A DNA stretch of 64,000 nt, taken from Escherichia coli. GTDB taxonomy: Bacteria > Pseudomonadota > Gammaproteobacteria > Enterobacterales > Enterobacteriaceae. The stretch's first letter is position 1; each line of letters starts with the position of its first letter. Both the position numbers and the translations under genes were made by a program. Shown in pieces: positions 5,873 to 51,312 of this stretch. The DNA lies in assembly GCF_044324875.1 (NCBI RefSeq), contig NZ_CP172187.1. One strand, written 5' to 3'. Under the pieces are notes generated by a model, which searched no databases, had not been told where the DNA came from, and saw only the letters and a list, made by a program, of their open reading frames with translations.

Positions 5873-6309
5873 CAGCGTAACTCCCGCGTCCTGTGTATCA
5901 CGTGAGTGACAACACCAAAAATACAGATGTTTTCCGGATACAGTGTGCGGAACTCCGGGCTGTCTGAAACCGGCTCCAGTGCCGGGCGTGGGCGCAACAG
6001 CAGTCGTTTGACGGTGAACTCACCATCGATCTCAGCGATAACGATGTCCCCGTGTTGTGGTTTTTCGGCCCTGTCCACTACCAGCAGATCACCATTCTGC
6101 ACGCCAGCCTGGTTCATCGATTCACCGCTGGCGCGCAGAAAGAAGGTGGCTGCAGGTCTGCTGATGCAATAGCTGTTCAGATCCAGTTCCTGCTCAGCAT
6201 AATCAGTGGCAGGCGAAGGAAAACCGGCCTGGCAACGATCGGCAAACAACGGTCGCACGTAACTGTCATTGCCTGAAGGGTCAGCCGGACGGTGATAAAC
6301 GGTACTCAT
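5872..6309 (-). CDS. impA: UmuD/MucA/ImpA-family LexA-like S24 peptidase subunit
   Basis: 145 aa; C-terminal S24 peptidase region (GESMNQAGVQNGDLLVVD...); ATGA overlap with downstream polymerase gene. Confidence 0.85.
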   Translation of the reverse strand: MSTVYHRPADPSGNDSYVRPLFADRCQAGFPSPATDYAEQELDLNSYCISRPAATFFLRASGESMNQAGVQNGDLLVVDRAEKPQHGDIVIAEIDGEFTVKRLLLRPRPALEPVSDSPEFRTLYPENICIFGVVTHVIHRTRELR

Positions 6310-6554
6310 GCTGCAGGCAGCCAGCTGTCGTCCTGCCAGATTTCTTCCAGCAGAGACAGGATACGTTCTTTATCCTTGTCGTTGCGGGCTCCTGTGACAG
6401 ATACAGACGGGGCGCTGCCCTGGTCTATACGCAGCCAGATTTCCGGGTAGTGTGGTTTCAGACGTCGTTCGATTTCATTCTGTAGCGCCTGAAGTGTGCC
6501 TGATTTGAGGTTTTTTGTGCTCTGGCGGTCGAAAAGAATTTCAATGCGGATCAT
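6306..6554 (-). CDS. impC: DinI-like small protein (ImpC-like), first gene of the operon
   Basis: Start chosen at internal ATG (MIRIEILFDR...) preceded by GGGAGA RBS; C-terminus ...ILSLLEEIWQDDSWL resembles DinI family. Confidence 0.7.
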   Translation of the reverse strand: MIRIEILFDRQSTKNLKSGTLQALQNEIERRLKPHYPEIWLRIDQGSAPSVSVTGARNDKDKERILSLLEEIWQDDSWLPAA

Positions 6555-6577
6555 GTTCTCATCTCCCTTTTCTTTTG

Positions 6578-6593
6578 CTGTATGTATATACAG
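6578..6593. promoter_or_regulatory. LexA box (CTGT-N8-ACAG): CTGTATGTATATACAG
   Basis: Consensus SOS box 24 bp upstream of the impC-like start codon. Confidence 0.8.
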
Positions 6594-6862
6594 TATTCTA
6601 ATAACTGAATCCACACACAGTCAAATGTCATTATTGTGACTAAAAAACGCTCAATTCTCTGAGGGTGTGGCTGTATGCCTGCTGTGGACTGCTGTGTCCA
6701 GCTTATCCACAGCATTTTGCGCACGGTTCTGTGAATAAAATACCTGGTTACCCAGGCCGTGCCGGCACGTTAACCGGGCTGCATCCAATGCAAGTGTGTC
6801 GCTGTCGCCGGCATCCTCACCAGGTCACTCAGCAGTCAGGGAGAAAAATGGCGGATGAAGTA

Positions 6863-11375: not shown

Positions 11376-11798
11376 ATGTACTGTACTGTTAAAGAAATTA
11401 TCCGCGAAGTGCTGGATACAGACGTGCCGGACAGTGAATGCGTTTTTGCCGTGGTGCTGACCCGTGGGGATGTGCGCCACATAGCTCAGGACTGGAGTCT
11501 GGCAGACGATGAGCTGGAAACCGTCATGCAGCGGCTGGACGATGCCTTTGAGCATGGTGCGGATGTCAGCGTTGTTCACGACGTTGTTCGTGAACTGATG
11601 GAAGAAAAGCGCGCCAGCCGTCATGTGACAGTCCCGGCGATGATGCTGGAAAAAGTGATGGCGCTGGCAGGCAGTGAAATGAAGCGCCTGTATGCCGTCG
11701 GAAGTGAGAACGGGGGCGACGGTGACGCATTCGTCAGGGAGGAACGCGAAGCAATGGACGTTGTGTTACAGGCGCTGGACGGGGAGACGATGTCATGA
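11376..11798 (+). CDS. hypothetical leading-region protein, paralog of the 9465-9899 product
   Basis: 140 aa; AAGGAGA RBS; paralogy visible by eye. Confidence 0.65.
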   Translation: MYCTVKEIIREVLDTDVPDSECVFAVVLTRGDVRHIAQDWSLADDELETVMQRLDDAFEHGADVSVVHDVVRELMEEKRASRHVTVPAMMLEKVMALAGSEMKRLYAVGSENGGDGDAFVREEREAMDVVLQALDGETMS

Positions 11799-11986
11799 AT
11801 ATCAGCACAGAAACCCGCGAAATTCTGCGTAATTACAGGGCCGTGATTAATGCGCGGCGTCGTGAAATGGGGCAGAAACCGCTCACCACCGCGCAGATTG
11901 TTGATGAAATCTGCGATTTTGTGGCGAATCAGCAGGCGGTTTTCCTGGGCGGTCACTACATCTTACAGGGCAGCAGAAACAGGTGA
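11795..11986 (+). CDS. hypothetical small protein (63 aa)
   Basis: ATGA overlap with upstream gene. Confidence 0.4.
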   Translation: MNISTETREILRNYRAVINARRREMGQKPLTTAQIVDEICDFVANQQAVFLGGHYILQGSRNR

Positions 11987-12178
11987 TACAGGGGCAGGCG
12001 GTGGAGGCCGCCTGTCAGCCCGCGCGAAAACCCCTGGCAGGCTGACGCCTGCCGGAAGGGAAGCGGGCCACGCTGGCGCGTCGCCCGTTACCCTTCCCGT
12101 CTGTGATGTGTCTGACTCAGGAGTGTTTCTTTCTTATGTTGCGGAACTGTTCCTGATGTTGTTGTTGTTCCTTTATCT

Positions 12179-12788: not shown

Positions 12789-13027
12789 GGGTGATGTTCT
12801 TTAAAAATCAGGATTTATTTCAGGCTCCGGCAATACGCATTTATGTGTTCTGTCAGTCATCCGGCTGGCAGGTAATGAGAACGCAGGAACAGAAGGAGGA
12901 AAACACCGGAGAACGTCAGACGCAGATATGAAAAAAGCAGGCCGGGGAGGACCTGCTTAATCCACACCGCAAAAACTGTTCGAGCAGTTTCTGCGGTTCC
13001 ATTCAACAGTCATAAGGAGTTTCATTT

Positions 13028-13258
13028 ATGACGGTAAGTATTGTTTCACCTTCCGCAGCGGCTGTAAAGCCCCGCCGTCATCCCCGTTTCAGACGCGAAG
13101 ACATCCCCGCGCCGGAAATTGACCCCGTGCTGAAAGCCTTCGGGCGACACATAGCCCGGAGTTTTCACCGGGGGCGTGGTGTACACATCCCCGCCATGAA
13201 AAACACGGCCTTCGGGCAGGTGCTCCGCACACTCGAACTGAAACGCGCTTTTAACTGA
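13028..13258 (+). CDS. hypothetical basic small protein (76 aa)
   Basis: AAGGAG RBS; first ORF after repeat B1. Confidence 0.45.
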   Translation: MTVSIVSPSAAAVKPRRHPRFRREDIPAPEIDPVLKAFGRHIARSFHRGRGVHIPAMKNTAFGQVLRTLELKRAFN

Positions 13259-14717: not shown

Positions 14718-15281
14718 ATGCACAGTCAGTTAAGAGAACGTATCCGGCTGATGCGCGCAAGGCTGGATAACGCCGCGCCGGTTGCTGAAATCCGGGCTGA
14801 ATCTCAGCTTTTTGTGACTCCTGCCCCGGTCTGTGATCGCCTGGTGACGCTGGCGGAAATCAGCAACCGTGATCACATTCTGGAACCCTCTGCCGGCACC
14901 GGGGCCATACTGCTGGCGATTCGGGATACCGCGCCGGAGGCCATGTGTGATGCGGTGGAGATTAACAGCGGGCTGGTCCGGTATCTGCGGGAAAATTTTA
15001 ACGGTGTCAGGGTACAGTGTGGCGACTTCATGGAATGGCAGCCGGTGCAGTATTACAGCCGGATCATTATGAATCCGCCGTTCAGTCACGGGCAGGATAT
15101 CCGGCATATCCTGCGGGCTTTTTCCCTGTTGCGTCCGGGGGGCGTTCTGGTTGCCGTCTGTCTCAACGGGCCGCGCCAGCAGGAGAAGCTGTTACCGTTT
15201 TCTGACGTCCGCGAGGAGCTGCCGCGCGGCACGTTTGCTTATACCGATGTCCCGACGATGATTATTCGTTTGCGTGCCTGA
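14718..15281 (+). CDS. small SAM-dependent methyltransferase-like protein (motif I EPSAGTGAI, motif IV NPPF), no obvious target-recognition domain
   Basis: 187 aa; N6-adenine MTase-type motifs read in the ORF; GGAGA RBS. Confidence 0.7.
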   Translation: MHSQLRERIRLMRARLDNAAPVAEIRAESQLFVTPAPVCDRLVTLAEISNRDHILEPSAGTGAILLAIRDTAPEAMCDAVEINSGLVRYLRENFNGVRVQCGDFMEWQPVQYYSRIIMNPPFSHGQDIRHILRAFSLLRPGGVLVAVCLNGPRQQEKLLPFSDVREELPRGTFAYTDVPTMIIRLRA

Positions 15282-15460
15282 TGACACAGGGCTGGCGGGA
15301 GGATAAATGCCCGTCTGTCCGCGCCGGGAAAAGACCGCGCGCCGGTGGCGCTGAAAGGGGCCGCGCTCACGCGCCGCCCCTTTCATTACGCGGACGTTCT
15401 GATGGGGGCTTCTGTCTTTTCAGACCTGTCATTTGTCTGTTACTGATGATGTTGTTGTTC

Positions 15461-15525
15461 CTGCTACTGCTACTGCTACTGCTACTGCTACTGCTACTGC
15501 TACTGCTACTGCTACTGCTACTGCT
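15461..15525. repeat. hexanucleotide tandem repeat (CTGCTA)n, ~11 copies
   Basis: Read directly; absent at the equivalent position of repeat copies B1 and B3. Confidence 0.9.
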
Positions 15526-15535
15526 CTTCTTTTTC

Positions 15536-16167
15536 CTGCTGCTCTGATTCTGACTACTGCAGTGTTGTTCTGTCTGCCGGGCGCACCTTCGGCTCCCGGC
15601 TGCCTGGCGGCATCCGGTCGTCAGGCCCGACTCCGACAGGCAGCTGCTGGCGCACCTGCCAGTCTCCGCCGAACCCGCTGGCGCGGTTTCGGGCTGCCGC
15701 TACGGTCCGATGCGTGAAAACCCGGCTTGCAGCGACCGTTCCGGTCGCGCCGCCCCTGTCGCGCCGTGACCTGCGCTCCAGGCATCCCGGCAAAAAGACG
15801 CCGGGATGTAAGGCGCAACGCCGTTTCGCAAACCGCGCTTCACGTCGTTGCGGCGGGTCCCTGCCCGTTGTTGTGTCCGGTGCCATTCACCTGTTTAAGC
15901 CCCTGTCGCCGGGGGCTGATACAGCCACAACCTGCCGCACTGACTGTCCAGGGTAAATGAACAGCCCACAAAATTTTTTACCCAAAACCCGGTAAAAAAT
16001 TTTGCGTTCTGCCCAGGACAGGTGCGTCAGGCCGTGGCAGTGATGCCCCATGCGGCGAAGGTTCTCAAACAGGTGATGGTGAATACCGGAGGGAACAAAG
16101 AGCAGGTCCCCGCAAAACGTCAAAACCGCGGCTCCCGAAACTCAACAGATGATGGGGGCTGAAAACA
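15536..16167 (+). repeat. leading-region repeat family B, copy 2 (immediately upstream of ssb)
   Basis: Near-identical to copies at 12179 and 23600. Confidence 0.85.
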
Positions 16168-16187
16168 TCAACAGAAGGAGACACATC

Positions 16188-19100
16188 ATGGCAGTTCGTG
16201 GCATTAACAAGGTCATTCTTGTCGGTGTGCGCCGTTGAAGCGCGGTGTTTTATGGAGTGTTGCCTGAAAAGCAACATGGCTTAGTGGTATAGCCATTGCA
16301 TACTGTGGTTAGCCTTGCTTGGTAACAGGCTCGGAGATCCTGAAAAGGAGAGGTGAACATAGCATCCACAGAAAAGGGTGGTGAATATGGAAATCGTTAT
16401 AAGTATCACCATTCAATGCAAGATGTATATGGATAAACTGGGTTTGTTGAAGTCGAGATCTATGTGGGAAACAGGAAACCAATAACGCAGAACGATTGAA
16501 GCGTTATTCCCGTACTAGCACAAGAAATCCGTCCGACGTTGATTGTGACCACTCTAACGGGCCAGCTATTGATGAAATAGTTAAACGATCGAAAGACATC
16601 CTAAGTACATCGCATCTCCACACCGTGAAACTACGGGACTACCTAAACTGGATTTATACCCAGCATGGTAGCGGAGTCTCCATAGTACTCAAGGTCGGCC
16701 TGTAATGGGTTCCGGCAGTCCGCATTATACGGAAGCAGCAAAGGTATAAATCAACCGGAAGGAAGATGAAAGCCTCACAGTGCTGCGGGGAAGGGAGACA
16801 GTTGTTAGATACATCAATCTCTAAGAGGAGGGTTAGCCAATGCTGCCTGATGAACTTGAGAAAAGATTAGATGGAATTGAGGATGCTTCAAAAAAAGGGT
16901 ATCCAGTACGTAATCTATACAAAATTGCGTGTGAGCCCGGACTGTGGCTGCAAGCCTACGTGAATATACGGGCCAATGCAGGTGCACTGACTCAAGGTGT
17001 ATCAACAGATACCATTGATGGCTTTTCTATCGAAAGAGCAGAGAAGCTGGCAAAAACATTGCGGAGTAGAGAATACGTAGCGAAACCTGTACGCAGAGTT
17101 CAGATCCCAAAAAAGGACGGAAAAACCAGACCGCTGGGGATTCCAGGTGGAGACGATAAACTGGCGCAAGAAGTAGCAAGAATTATTCTGGAAAGGGTTT
17201 ATGAACCAGTATTCTCTGAACACTCTCATGGATTCAGACCAAAACGTTCGTGTGAAACTGCGCTCAGATCTATTCGTCCAGTCTGGAACGGAGTTAAATG
17301 GATCGTGGATGTTGATATCAAAGGTTTCTTTGACAATATCCCCCACAAACTATTGCTGAATACACTGGCAGAGAAAATTAAGGATAAGAATTTCCTGAAA
17401 TTAATCGAACAGTGGCTGAAGGCAGGATATGTGGACAATTGGAAATACCATCGCTCATATTCTGGCACGCCACAAGGTGGGATAATTTCTCCCTTACTGG
17501 CAAATATATACCTCGACAAACTGGACCGTTTTGTAGAACAGAATTTAATTCCTGCATATACAAGCGGTACAAAACGAAGAGCGAATCCAGATATGAACAG
17601 GCTGGCCCATAAGATTCATAAACTACGAAAGAAAGTAGACGGTATGGCAACTGATTCTGAATCAGAAAAAGAAGCCATAAAGAAAGAAATTGAACGACTG
17701 CTTGAAGAAAAACGTTCTATACCATCTCAGGTCATGAACGATCCAAACTTCAGGCGTATGTACTATGTTCGATATGCTGATGACTTCGTAATCGGTGTCA
17801 TCGGCTCGAAGAAAGATGCTGAACATATATCAAGACAGGTCAGAAACTTTATTACTACTTCACTGGGATTGGAAGTTAATGAAGCAAAGACCAGGATCCG
17901 CCATATCTCAGAAGGAGTTAATTTTTTAGGCTATGAAATCAGACAGGCAGATGCAAAGAAATTGCTGAAGCAGAAAATGCAAGGGCGGCACGCTCTCCGG
18001 AGATCCACCACAGGAATTGTGCAGCTCTTCGTTCCTGACAATATAGCCGCTAAATTTTGTCACCAAAAGAAATATGGCTGTTATGAGAATGTGAAGGCTG
18101 TACATCGTTCAAGTCTACAAAATCTCAGTGAAGCTGAAATTGTTCTGACTTTCAACGCGGAAATGCGCGGATTGGCGAACTACTACAGTCTGGCGCTGGA
18201 CATGAAATATAAATTATCAAAATTATATTTCATATGGCAAATAAGCCTTTTTAAGACCCTGGCGAATAAACGACGTAGTTCAGTGAATAAAGTCGCCAAA
18301 TCGCTACGGCAAAATAATGGAGATCTGGCTATTACCGTTCAGGCCAAAAATGGATCCCGAAAGATTGAGGTTTTCAAACTCAAACATGTCAATCGCAACC
18401 GAACAACGATTGTCGATACGGAACCGAGAACCGCACATATCACAACCCGCACAACAGAGATCATGCGTCGATTAGGGGCAAGGATCTGCGAGTATTGTGC
18501 GAAGACTGGGCGCTGCGAAGTACATCATGTCAGAAAGCTAAAAGACCTGAAGAAAGGTCGTAAGGCCGGATATAAACCCAGCTTGTGGCAACTAATGATG
18601 ATCGCACGCCGCCGGAAAACGATGATTTTGTGCGCAAGTTGCCACGACAAGTTACATAGCGGAAAACTACCCGATTTGAGACAGGAAAAGGGAAGAATAC
18701 TCCTGCAACCACCTGTCTCAAGCGGGGATTCTGCTAAATGAGTTTATCCCCAATAAGCTAGCAATGGAGAGCCGTATGCACTGAAAGGTGCACGTACGGT
18801 TCGGAGGGGGGGTAACGGTGATCTAACTCAAGATAAGCAGGACATATTCGCCATTTATCTTGAAAGACCACACGTACCCTACCCTACCGTCTGGGAAAAG
18901 ATCCGGAAGTCCGTTACATCCCAAACGGGGGCGCAGTGGCAAACCTGCAGGTGGCCACGTCAGAAAGCTGGCGCGACAAACAGACGGGGGAGATACGGGA
19001 GCAGACAGAATGGCATCGCGTGGTGCTGTTCGGCAAGCTCGCGGAAGTGGCTGGTGAGTATCTGCGCAAGGGCGCGCAGGTCTACATCGAAGGTCAGCTT

Positions 19101-48493: not shown

Positions 48494-51312
48494 ATGAAGT
48501 TTATGTGATTGCCGGTGGTGAGTGGTTGCGGAATAACCTGAATGCCATTGCCGCCTTTATGGGAACCAGAACGTGGGATTCCATTGAAAAAATTGCGCTC
48601 ACATTGTCTGTTCTCGCGGTGGCCGTAATGTGGGTACAGCGGCACAACGTGATGGATTTGCTGGGCTGGGTGGCCGTGTTTGTGCTTATCAGCCTGCTGG
48701 TTAATGTCCGTACATCGGTGCAGATTATTGATAACAGTGACCTGGTCAAAGTTCACCGGGTGGATAATGTGCCGGTCGGACTGGCGATGCCACTTTCACT
48801 GACGACCCGTATCGGGCATGCAATGGTGGCCAGTTACGAGATGATCTTCACGCAACCGGACAGTGTCACCTACAGCAAAACGGGGATGCTGTTTGGCGCA
48901 GAACTGGTATCAAAAAGCACCGACTTTTTGTCCCGTAATCCGGAAATCGCCAATCTTTTCCAGGATTATGTGCAGAACTGCGTGATGGGGGATATTTACC
49001 TGAACCACAAATATACGCTGGAGGAGCTGATGGCCTCCGCTGATCCCTACACGCTGATTTTTTCCCGCCCCAGCCCGCTGCGGGGCGTTTATGACAGCAA
49101 TAATAATTTCGTAACCTGTAAGGACGCTTCGGTTTCGCTGAAAGACAAGCTGAATCTGGACACACAGAGTGGCGGAAAAACCTGGCATTATTATGCCCAG
49201 CAGCTATTTGGCGGACGCCCTGATCCTAACCTGCTGTTCAGTACGCTGATTGGCGACAGTTACAGTTACTTCTATGGCTCAAGTAAATCAGCCAGCCAGA
49301 TCATCCGCCAGAATGTCACCATCAATGCGCTGAAGGAGGGGATCACCAGTTATGCCGCACGTAATGGTGATTCGGCCAGCCTGGTGAATCTGGCCACCAC
49401 GTCATCGATGGAGAAACAACGTCTGGCACATGTATCAATCGGTCATGTGGCGATGCGGACACTGCCCATGACGCAGACCATCCTGACGGGGATCGCCATC
49501 GGTATTTTCCCGCTCCTGGTACTGGCGGCTGTATTCAACAAACTGACGCTGTCCGTCCTGAAAGGCTATGTGTTTGCCCTGATGTGGTTGCAGTCATGGC
49601 CAATGTTGTACGCCATTCTGAACAGCGCCATGACATTTTATGCAAAGCAGAATGGTGCACCGGTGGTGCTCTCGGAAATTTCACAGATACAGCTGAAATA
49701 CTCCGATCTGGCTTCCACTGCCGGGTATCTTTCCATGATGATCCCGCCATTATCCTGGATGATGGTCAGGGGGCTCGGGGCAGGATTTTCCAGTGTGTAC
49801 AGCCATTTCGCTTCCTCTGCTATCAGCCCGACCGCCAGTGCAGCAGGCAGTGTGGTTGACGGTAATTACTCCTACGGCAACATGCAGACGGAGAACGTGA
49901 ACGGCTTCAGCTGGAGCACCAACAGCACCACGTCGTTTGGTCAGATGATGTACCAGACCGGCAGTGGCGCAACTGCCACACAGACCCGTGACGGTAATAT
50001 GGTGATGGATGCAAGCGGAGCGATGTCCCGGTTACCGGTCGGCATCAATGCAACGCGTCAGATTGCGGCGGCACAACAGGAAATGGCCCGGGAAGCATCG
50101 AACAGAGCAGAAAGTGCCCTGCATGGGTTCAGCAGCAGTATTGCCAGTGCCTGGAACACGCTCAGTCAGTTTGGTTCTAACCGGGGGAGCAGTGATTCTG
50201 TCACCGGTGGCGCTGACAGTACGATGAGCGCACAGGACTCCATGATGGCCAGCCGTATGCGCAGTGCAGTGGAAAGCTATGCGAAGGCGCATAATATCAG
50301 TAATGAGCAGGCGACTCAGGAACTGGCATCCAGAAGTACGAGAGCTTCTGCCGGGATGTATGGAGATGCTCATGCTGAATGGGGGGTTAAACCTAAAATT
50401 CTTGGTGTTGGTGGAGGATTAGGTGTTAAAGGTGGTGGTCGCGCTGGTATTGATTGGGAAGATAATGATGCGCATACGGCAAGTAGTAATACTCAGTCGA
50501 GCCATAATGCTCGTCATGATATCGATGCCAGAGCTACACAAGACTTTAAAGAGGCCAGCGATTACTTTACCAGTCGCAAGGTCAGTGAGTCCGGCAGCCA
50601 TACTGACAATAATGCTGATTCCCGTGTGGATCAGTTGTCTGCAGCCCTGAACTCAGCAAAACAGAGTTACGACCAGTTCACGACGAATATGACCCGCAGC
50701 CATGAATATGCTGAAATGGCATCCCGTACTGAAAGCATGAGTGGGCAGATGAGTGAAGACCTGTCGCAACAGTTTGCACAGTATGTGATGAAACACGCGC
50801 CGCAGGATGCCGAAGCTATTCTGACAAACACCAGTTCACCGGAGATTGCAGAACGCCGTCGGGCTATGGCGTGGTCTTTTGTTCAGGAACAGGTGCAGCC
50901 TGGTGTTGATAATGCCTGGCGTGAATCCCGTGGGGACATCGGTAAAGGAATGGAGAGCGTACCTTCGGGTGGTGGCAGCCAGGATATTATTGCTGATCAT
51001 CAGGGGCATCAGGCCATTATTGAGCAAAGAACGCAGGACAGTAATATCCGTAATGATGTAAAACATCAGGTTGATAATATGGTCACAGAATACCGAGGCA
51101 ATATCGGAGATACTCAGAGCAGCATACGTGGCGAAGAAAATATTGTAGGAAGACAGTATTCTGAACTACAAAATCACCATAAAACAGAGGCATTATCTCA
51201 GAATAATAAATATAATGAAGAAAAATCGGGTCAGGAAAGAATGCCCGGGGCTGACAGTCCACAGGAACTGATGAAAAGAGCAAAGGAGTATCAGGATAAG
51301 CACAAGCAATAA
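48490..51312 (+). CDS. traG: TraG (mating-pair stabilisation / entry exclusion determinant)
   Basis: 940 aa MNEVYVIAGGEWLRNNLNAIAAFMGT... Confidence 0.9.
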   Translation: MNEVYVIAGGEWLRNNLNAIAAFMGTRTWDSIEKIALTLSVLAVAVMWVQRHNVMDLLGWVAVFVLISLLVNVRTSVQIIDNSDLVKVHRVDNVPVGLAMPLSLTTRIGHAMVASYEMIFTQPDSVTYSKTGMLFGAELVSKSTDFLSRNPEIANLFQDYVQNCVMGDIYLNHKYTLEELMASADPYTLIFSRPSPLRGVYDSNNNFVTCKDASVSLKDKLNLDTQSGGKTWHYYAQQLFGGRPDPNLLFSTLIGDSYSYFYGSSKSASQIIRQNVTINALKEGITSYAARNGDSASLVNLATTSSMEKQRLAHVSIGHVAMRTLPMTQTILTGIAIGIFPLLVLAAVFNKLTLSVLKGYVFALMWLQSWPMLYAILNSAMTFYAKQNGAPVVLSEISQIQLKYSDLASTAGYLSMMIPPLSWMMVRGLGAGFSSVYSHFASSAISPTASAAGSVVDGNYSYGNMQTENVNGFSWSTNSTTSFGQMMYQTGSGATATQTRDGNMVMDASGAMSRLPVGINATRQIAAAQQEMAREASNRAESALHGFSSSIASAWNTLSQFGSNRGSSDSVTGGADSTMSAQDSMMASRMRSAVESYAKAHNISNEQATQELASRSTRASAGMYGDAHAEWGVKPKILGVGGGLGVKGGGRAGIDWEDNDAHTASSNTQSSHNARHDIDARATQDFKEASDYFTSRKVSESGSHTDNNADSRVDQLSAALNSAKQSYDQFTTNMTRSHEYAEMASRTESMSGQMSEDLSQQFAQYVMKHAPQDAEAILTNTSSPEIAERRRAMAWSFVQEQVQPGVDNAWRESRGDIGKGMESVPSGGGSQDIIADHQGHQAIIEQRTQDSNIRNDVKHQVDNMVTEYRGNIGDTQSSIRGEENIVGRQYSELQNHHKTEALSQNNKYNEEKSGQERMPGADSPQELMKRAKEYQDKHKQ

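Follow-up and report, generated by a model that had tools for sequence, protein, structure and literature searches.

The ssb intron and its encoded protein

The 64,000-nucleotide stretch of Escherichia coli DNA analysed here (contig NZ_CP172187.1; hereafter the window, whose numbering all positions follow) belongs to an F-like conjugative plasmid, and its ssb gene is interrupted by a group II intron of 2661 nt that encodes a reverse transcriptase (RT)/maturase with an endonuclease (En) domain. The intron, which is LtrB-like, occupies 16227–18887 on the plus strand and runs from GTGCG to CCTAC, with its ends placed by the exon reading frame, by 20 independent junctions, and by an Rfam match. 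From sequence reading and splice reconstruction, exon 1 (16188–16226, plus strand) supplies ssb codons 1–13 and holds intron-binding site 1 (IBS1; GTCGGT, positions −6 to −1) and the IBS2 region; exon 2 (18888–19376, plus strand) begins with delta′ (C at +1, G at +2), has T at +5, and continues through the stop codon. Excision of 16227–18887 restores a 175-aa SSB reading frame, the intron sitting after ssb codon 13, and the joined exons are 100% identical to an uninterrupted ssb site in NC_004998.1. Only one copy of the intron is present within the window.

The 3′ end of the ribozyme is recognizable from covariance models: Rfam Intron_gpII (RF00029, domains V/VI) matches 18767–18887 with 67.4 bits against a gathering score of 40 and ends at the terminal CCUAC. 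The alignment places domain V (GAGCCGUAUGCACUGAAAGGUGCACGUACGGUUC) at 18769–18802 and domain VI with the 3′ splice site (ending in CCUACCCUAC) at 18803–18887, both on the plus strand, with model position 77 at 18887. The Rfam D1–D4 families did not match the intron even at a permissive threshold.

The open reading frame (ORF) within the intron (intron nt 614–2515; 16840–18741, plus strand) starts with ATG and encodes 633 aa, with an RT domain at approximately 17104–17919, an X/maturase domain at approximately 18049–18309, and an En/HNH domain at 18487–18645. The protein matches Pfam RVT_1 (E = 1.7e-37), Intron_maturas2 (E = 8e-11, aa 404–490, a segment that aligns with the X domain of LtrA), and AI2M-like_HNH (PF21368; E = 1.1e-15, aa 550–602), as well as NCBIfam TIGR04416 (group II intron reverse transcriptase/maturase; 310.7 bits against a curated cutoff of 300). 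The RT motif YADDFVIG and the C-terminal HNH motif named in the initial annotation were both located, with significant domain matches. The former lies at aa 312–319 (17773–17796), with the catalytic YADD at aa 312–315 (17773–17784), and is accompanied by other conserved RT motifs, FLGY among them; the latter is the endonuclease signature CEYC...VHHV...CASCH at aa 550–602, which aligns to CELC...IHHV...CFHCH of LtrA. A full-length alignment joins residues 25–604 of the protein to residues 25–593 of LtrA (PDB 5g2x_C) at approximately 40% identity (E = 5.5e-119), with conservation of the RT motifs including YADD and, in the endonuclease domain, of the HH dipeptide and the two Cys pairs. Inactivating changes in the RT or HNH motifs, which would have spoken against mobility, were not seen in the domain and motif comparison with LtrA. 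The suggestion that the intron carries the equipment for retrohoming thus holds, the RT, maturase, and HNH domains all being present and intact.

No other solved structure matches the protein nearly as well as LtrA (E = 5.5e-119, as against approximately 1e-40 to 1e-48 for other classes). Because of this, and because of the Intron_maturas2 and AI2M-like HNH domains and a delta segment lying beside exon-binding site 1 (EBS1; see below), the intron is probably an Ll.LtrB-like member of the mitochondrial-like (ML)/IIA-like lineage.

Recent movement and target recognition

The initial annotation had proposed a mobile intron, and comparison of its copies supports that proposal: we put the probability at about 0.8 that the intron is active or was so very recently, with its homing site at the codon 13/14 boundary of plasmid ssb genes (..V-G|R-L-G..). 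Two main haplotypes occur among 21 sampled copies (sampled loci carry L-numbers and genome matches H-numbers below). Haplotype A, that of the window, is found identical or with a 1-nt difference in IncI1-type plasmids (L002, L004, L019), and haplotype B occurs without any change in IncF and IncI-type alleles and at chromosomal sites; the same 2661-nt intron, with 0–1 mismatches, is present in both IncF and IncI1 ssb alleles. These occupied alleles are only 93–95% identical to one another over the first 300 nt of exon 2 and 63–88% identical over the upstream 300 nt, and the flanks of identical introns differ already at −1, −4, +3, and +9. Because the flanks diverge right at both junctions, recombination would need repeated breakpoints exactly at the intron ends. 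Judged from these alignments, retrohoming without co-conversion of the exons can directly explain identical introns in diverged ssb alleles, and recombination cannot. Strain 98210 presents the situation within one cell: its two plasmids have the ssb alleles GTCGGT|CGT and GTAGGA|CGC, with an identical haplotype B intron in both.

Precise full-length copies of haplotype B are also found on chromosomes, in citX between citF and citG (L007) and directly upstream of tdcA (L008, L012). Both insertions are in sense orientation and have flanks similar to the ssb site; the citX flank carries the ssb-site sequence GTCATCCTC at −15 to −7, and the tdcA flank has GT-GGT|CGT in common with ssb. Of the 18 positions at which the two haplotypes differ, 10 belong to the 5′ part of the ribozyme (613 nt), 7 belong to the ORF, and the remaining one is in the 3′ part. 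Because all seven ORF differences (all of them transitions) are synonymous, for which the chance probability is approximately 6e-4, the intron-encoded protein appears to be under purifying selection.

The distribution of the haplotypes over the alleles also bears on how the target is recognized. Among the segments of the intron, nt 304–311 (CG-UCCGAC; 16530–16537, plus strand) is the one most complementary to all seven distinct target sites, pairing with +2, +1, and −1 to −6, and it forms part of a hairpin loop in which delta directly precedes EBS1. The haplotypes differ within this segment at nt 306 and 309, so that EBS1 reads UCCGAC in A and CCCUAC in B, and these nucleotides are opposite −1 and −4 of the target, where the wobble bases of the Gly and Val codons vary among ssb alleles. 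The alleles in which haplotype A, with G309, was found all have C at −4 (5/5), and U309 of haplotype B fits the tdcA site as well as GTAGG/GTGGG alleles. Compensatory changes are seen in related introns: opposite −6, C has become U where the target has A for G; opposite −1, G faces C; and opposite +1 and +2, U and U replace G and C, in keeping with a change of the target from C and G to A and A. Independently of each other, the haplotype differences at nt 306/309 and the compensatory changes in relatives support the prediction that nt 304–311 are EBS1/delta. The citX site would pair better with this segment if the register were shifted by one nucleotide from that in which the insertion is observed.

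These observations can be set against the possibility that the intron is an immobile relic, spread by plasmids and homologous recombination only. Such a relic could be expected to show what is in part seen, namely only two main haplotypes, many copies in decay (through IS1203, ISEc23, and IS1 insertions or a frameshifted ORF), and a majority of available sites that are empty. However, it would not account for identical introns in alleles that differ immediately at both junctions, for precise chromosomal insertions at non-homologous sites, for the absence of nonsynonymous differences among the seven in the ORF, or for an EBS1 that varies exactly at the nucleotides facing polymorphic −1 and −4, and we regard it as very improbable.

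Several observations nevertheless weigh against an active intron homing to ssb, or against parts of that reading. The window's own allele has T at −1, mismatched with U306. EBS2 could not be located: G/U-rich segments give many false matches, and a column-wise search over five related introns returned only ambiguous matches of this G/U-rich kind. The candidate that scored best by complementarity, AGGGUGG at nt 149–155, was rejected because it forms one strand of a helix, in which the haplotype difference at nt 186 converts G-U to G-C and so supports the pairing. Both ectopic sites, citX and tdcA, have A rather than T at +5, a position that is T in every sampled ssb site, those of distant relatives included. 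In Ll.LtrB, T at +5 is needed for second-strand cleavage and separates En-dependent homing from En-independent retrotransposition; by analogy, the citX and tdcA events may have used an endonuclease-independent route. Occupancy of the available sites is roughly 8% or less, with 426 full-length introns to be compared with at least 3942 empty IncF-type sites and approximately 1000 empty IncI-type sites (the latter extrapolated from sampled rows) among the 5000 best PLSDB records matching the spliced junction; the site is empty in plasmid F as well. The plentiful supply of vacant targets in itself counts in favor of homing; the low occupancy could reflect low mobility or counter-selection. The searchable literature yielded no experiment on this intron, and the intron movement reported in PMC10104558, which we had considered as proof of mobility, was set aside because it concerns another intron, which interrupts yffB, is oppositely oriented, and encodes a different protein.

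By analogy with Ll.LtrB, we propose that the intron is transcribed as part of ssb, with the 633-aa protein aiding splicing, which would restore the ssb mRNA, and staying on the excised lariat. The resulting ribonucleoprotein (RNP) would recognize intron-less ssb alleles in double-stranded DNA through pairing of EBS1/delta (nt 304–311) with −6 to +2, pairing of EBS2, and contacts of the protein, after which the HNH domain would nick the opposite strand downstream and the RT would copy the intron.

The transferred strand: target or template

The initial annotation had further proposed that the leading region, which enters recipients as single-stranded DNA (ssDNA), is the form of target that the intron attacks. 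Evaluating this idea requires knowing which strand is transferred. Besides the intron, the window carries the traJ 5′ untranslated region with FinP (approximately 27.2 kb) and further Rfam small-RNA matches expected of an F-like plasmid: AS-pc01 (12932–13033, minus strand), sok (approximately 23 kb; 22997–23173, plus strand), and antisense RNAs to traG (AS-traG, 49209–49294, minus strand) and traI (AS-traI, 61274–61350, minus strand). A nic-site sequence of the R100 type from the origin of transfer, oriT (AGTGTGT|GGTGCTTT; 26367–26381, minus strand), lies between the leading region and traM/traJ, the same layout as in plasmid F. The nic sequence is a weak match by itself, with two mismatches to F and an equally good match in 17 of 100 shuffles, so its position and context also carry the argument. 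From the strand of the nic site, its position, and the F-like arrangement, the transferred strand is the minus strand, entering 5′ first from oriT toward ssb.

This polarity is what decides the question. Couturier et al. (PMC9849209) show that in F it is the transferred strand that serves as template for ssbF and for the leading genes oriented like it. Since the intron and ssb are on the plus strand and IBS1/delta′ are needed on the receiving strand, the incoming strand carries only their complement and not the target itself. The proposal of a single-stranded target is therefore contradicted by the antisense polarity of the transferred strand, even though the leading region does enter as ssDNA and stays so for minutes (PMC9849209) and ssDNA can be used by group II introns for retrotransposition (PMC7306698). 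All 20 sampled ssb insertions are in sense orientation, which again speaks against it, as does an En domain that is intact and apparently under purifying selection, for which an ssDNA target would create no need. We consider homing into the freshly entered strand highly unlikely. The role of the HNH domain is to nick the second strand of a duplex, and an intact En is a hallmark of retrohoming into double-stranded DNA; to our knowledge, the group II introns that target or rely on ssDNA are all without an En domain. By this comparison, the intact endonuclease points to ordinary double-strand retrohoming.

Alternatively, an additional or even the main route could be En-independent, by reverse splicing into a transiently single-stranded plus strand with nascent DNA as primer, the ssDNA being provided at replication forks or by the donor strand retained during rolling-circle transfer. 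The lack of T at +5 in the two ectopic sites is what such a route would lead one to expect, a missing T+5 going together with En-independent retrotransposition in Ll.LtrB. The retained donor strand is the plus (sense) strand, and ssDNA builds up in donors (PMC9849209). However, no direct evidence supports this route, and T+5 has been kept in every sampled ssb site including those of distant relatives, which fits En-dependent homing. Nor do the two ectopic sites show a strand bias (n = 2) on the K-12 map, on which we take citX to lie on the leading-strand template and tdcA on the lagging-strand template. We thus consider an En-independent route unlikely, if less so than homing into the incoming strand, and prefer En-dependent retrohoming into double-stranded ssb alleles.

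A different role for ssDNA is suggested by the sequence directly upstream of ssb. A region resembling the single-strand promoter Frpo2 of plasmid F (15718–16216, minus strand) shares 94.6% identity with the stretch of F that immediately precedes ssbF and 89.6% identity with another stretch of F approximately 5 kb off, upstream of ygeA (positions 6175–6672 and 11559–12012 in our F plasmid locus, L023), and the minus strand of 15860–16190 is predicted to fold into a long hairpin (−83.2 kcal/mol, z = −9.7). This pattern matches the description of the Frpo2/Frpo1 pair of single-strand promoters in F, where early expression of ssbF from the incoming strand requires Frpo2 and where deletion of ssbF causes no drop in conjugation efficiency (PMC9849209). 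Because an Frpo2 homologue stands upstream of exon 1, we infer by analogy with F that transcription of the intron, protein gene included, takes place within the first minutes of entry, and, because ssbF is dispensable for conjugation efficiency in F, that the plasmid tolerates imperfect splicing. After conjugation, early transcription of the intron would thus proceed from the incoming single strand via the Frpo2-like promoter, and ssDNA more plausibly matters for expression of the intron, as a template, than as its target. The early entry phase would, speculatively, offer a favorable time for invading the ssb alleles of plasmids that are already resident. Next to the Frpo-like region, the plus-strand ORF translations over approximately 15281–15720 contain long poly-Leu and (Ala-Thr)n runs, which indicates a simple-sequence repeat between that region and a methyltransferase-like gene (14718–15281).

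Distribution, relatives and known systems

The gene for the intron RT/maturase is an already known, correctly named, and common element. The window protein is 100% identical to RefSeq WP_000936285.1, annotated "ltrA, group II intron reverse transcriptase/maturase", and this exact protein is indexed in 18,547 blocks of a public assembly collection. The intron was found in 514 PLSDB plasmids, nearly full length in 426, with hosts that are mainly Escherichia and in some cases Salmonella, Klebsiella, and Shigella; plasmids of ST131, such as that of strain EC958, are among the hundreds of sequenced plasmids in which the protein is unchanged. Among 5426 complete E. coli genomes, 436 contain it, in 564 plasmid places and 9 chromosomal places, and a single genome has eight intron-matching places, which may represent proliferation or fragmentation. 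The searchable literature, itself incomplete, yielded no account of this intron, of its ssb site, or of a published E.c.I-number name for it. RefSeq/PGAP leaves the intron unmodelled (L013–L022), with the result that the entry called 'ssb' is exon 2, shortened at its N terminus and beginning at an internal or intron-derived start codon, and that ssb exon 1 is listed as a pseudogene fragment.

Many copies are decaying (NZ_CP123060.1 or H41, L014, L017, L020, and H71/L006): some have IS1203, ISEc23, or IS1 insertions, one copy of 2648 nt has a frameshifted ORF, and another is 5′-deleted and lies beside umuD. An IS1-bounded 3′ fragment (intron nt 2068–2661), annotated as 'HNH endonuclease', is frequent in large poultry-associated plasmids. 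We considered whether such 5′-truncated copies (nt 2068–2661) are products of abortive reverse transcription and rejected this, the one examined (n = 1) being bounded by IS1, which points to IS-mediated deletion.

Relatives of the protein share its association with ssb. The gene is interrupted in Xenorhabdus at 84% protein identity (L024), and in others at 75% (L025, L026), 74% (L027), and 67% (L033); at 66% (L028), only the 3′ junction with ssb is available, the 5′ exon having been lost at the contig end; and ssb is again interrupted in Ktedonobacteraceae at 54% (L029–L031) and beside AcaB/SLT genes at 50% (L032). All eight sampled relatives with 50–84% protein identity adjoin ssb, and in each of the seven whose 5′ junction is on the contig, ssb is split at the homologous codon boundary, V/I-G|R/N/H-L-G, a boundary that the 3′ exon of L028 (HLGRDPE) fits as well. 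Their hosts are diverse (Xenorhabdus, Ktedonobacteraceae, and metagenomes), and T at +5 is invariant among them. The 3/3 relatives at 44–49% identity interrupt other mobile-element genes, namely those for a phage-type integrase (49%; L034), the anti-restriction protein gene ardC (46%; L035), and a helicase (44%; L036).

In this small sample, the group with 50–84% identity looks like an intron clade specialized on ssb, of which the same incomplete literature holds no description that we could find. It is a tentative extension, less probable than not in our estimation, that a deep clade (protein identity down to approximately 50%, from Enterobacterales plasmids to Chloroflexota) is specialized on one codon boundary of ssb genes on mobile elements and that in F-like and I-type plasmids it may exploit conjugation, with a burst of expression from the incoming single strand behind the Frpo2/ssi ssDNA promoter and RNPs that could home into intron-less ssb alleles of plasmids resident in the recipient.

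As stated, the finding of a mobile intron with an intact RT and endonuclease is an ordinary one; of more interest are the clade specialized on ssb and a possible link between expression of the intron and conjugative entry. With its place in the first gene downstream of a single-strand promoter, this ssb-specific and apparently undescribed lineage would be a natural system in which to ask whether retroelements time their mobility to conjugative entry. In practical terms, the intron can serve as a marker in strain typing of IncF and IncI plasmids, and it makes the plasmid SSB splicing-dependent, while annotation pipelines split or shorten ssb around it.

A second group II intron, absent from the window, is present in some IncI/IncF leading regions, approximately 1.8 kb upstream of the ssb intron (L004, 514–2181; L005, 515–2182; L022, 391–2058; all on the minus strand), and encodes the 555-aa protein WP_012372796.1, with RVT_N, RVT_1, GIIM, and HNH domains. 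Unlike the ssb intron, it belongs to an unrelated lineage and lies in yffB in the opposite orientation, so that its sense strand is the transferred strand; for this reason, the idea of an ssDNA target would be better suited to the second intron. It agrees in position and orientation, the two features by which we liken them, with the yffB intron (ESBL01_04913) for which a new junction in a co-resident plasmid arose in the course of laboratory evolution (PMC10104558).

Other mobile group II introns, of the IIC and IIC-attC classes and the En-less RmInt1, are those known to use ssDNA or replication forks, and ssDNA is a true target form in their case. In contrast to the intron described here, with its intact En and its site in a coding sequence, they are without En, and IIC introns recognize stem-loops such as terminators or attC.

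The closest parallel is Ll.LtrB/LtrA of Lactococcus lactis pRS01 (PDB 5g2x), which shares the RT-X-D-En architecture, with a protein that aligns over its full length, and, in its known arrangement, a delta immediately 5′ of EBS1 in a hairpin loop. Both introns are inserted in sense orientation within a gene of a conjugative element, and therefore in both the host gene depends on splicing. They differ in that the interrupted gene is here a leading-region ssb and there a relaxase gene, in that the host element is here a Gram-negative IncF/IncI plasmid, and in the identity of their proteins, which is approximately 40%. According to the work of Staddon et al. (2004), as it is cited in PMC3522654, introns with a conserved target occur in the relaxase genes of Gram-positive conjugative elements. 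The intron in the window resembles these in belonging to a lineage faithful to a single homing site, which is part of a conserved motif in a gene common to many conjugative elements, and departs from them in what that site is: here, the ssb codon boundary V/I-G|R/N/H-L-G.

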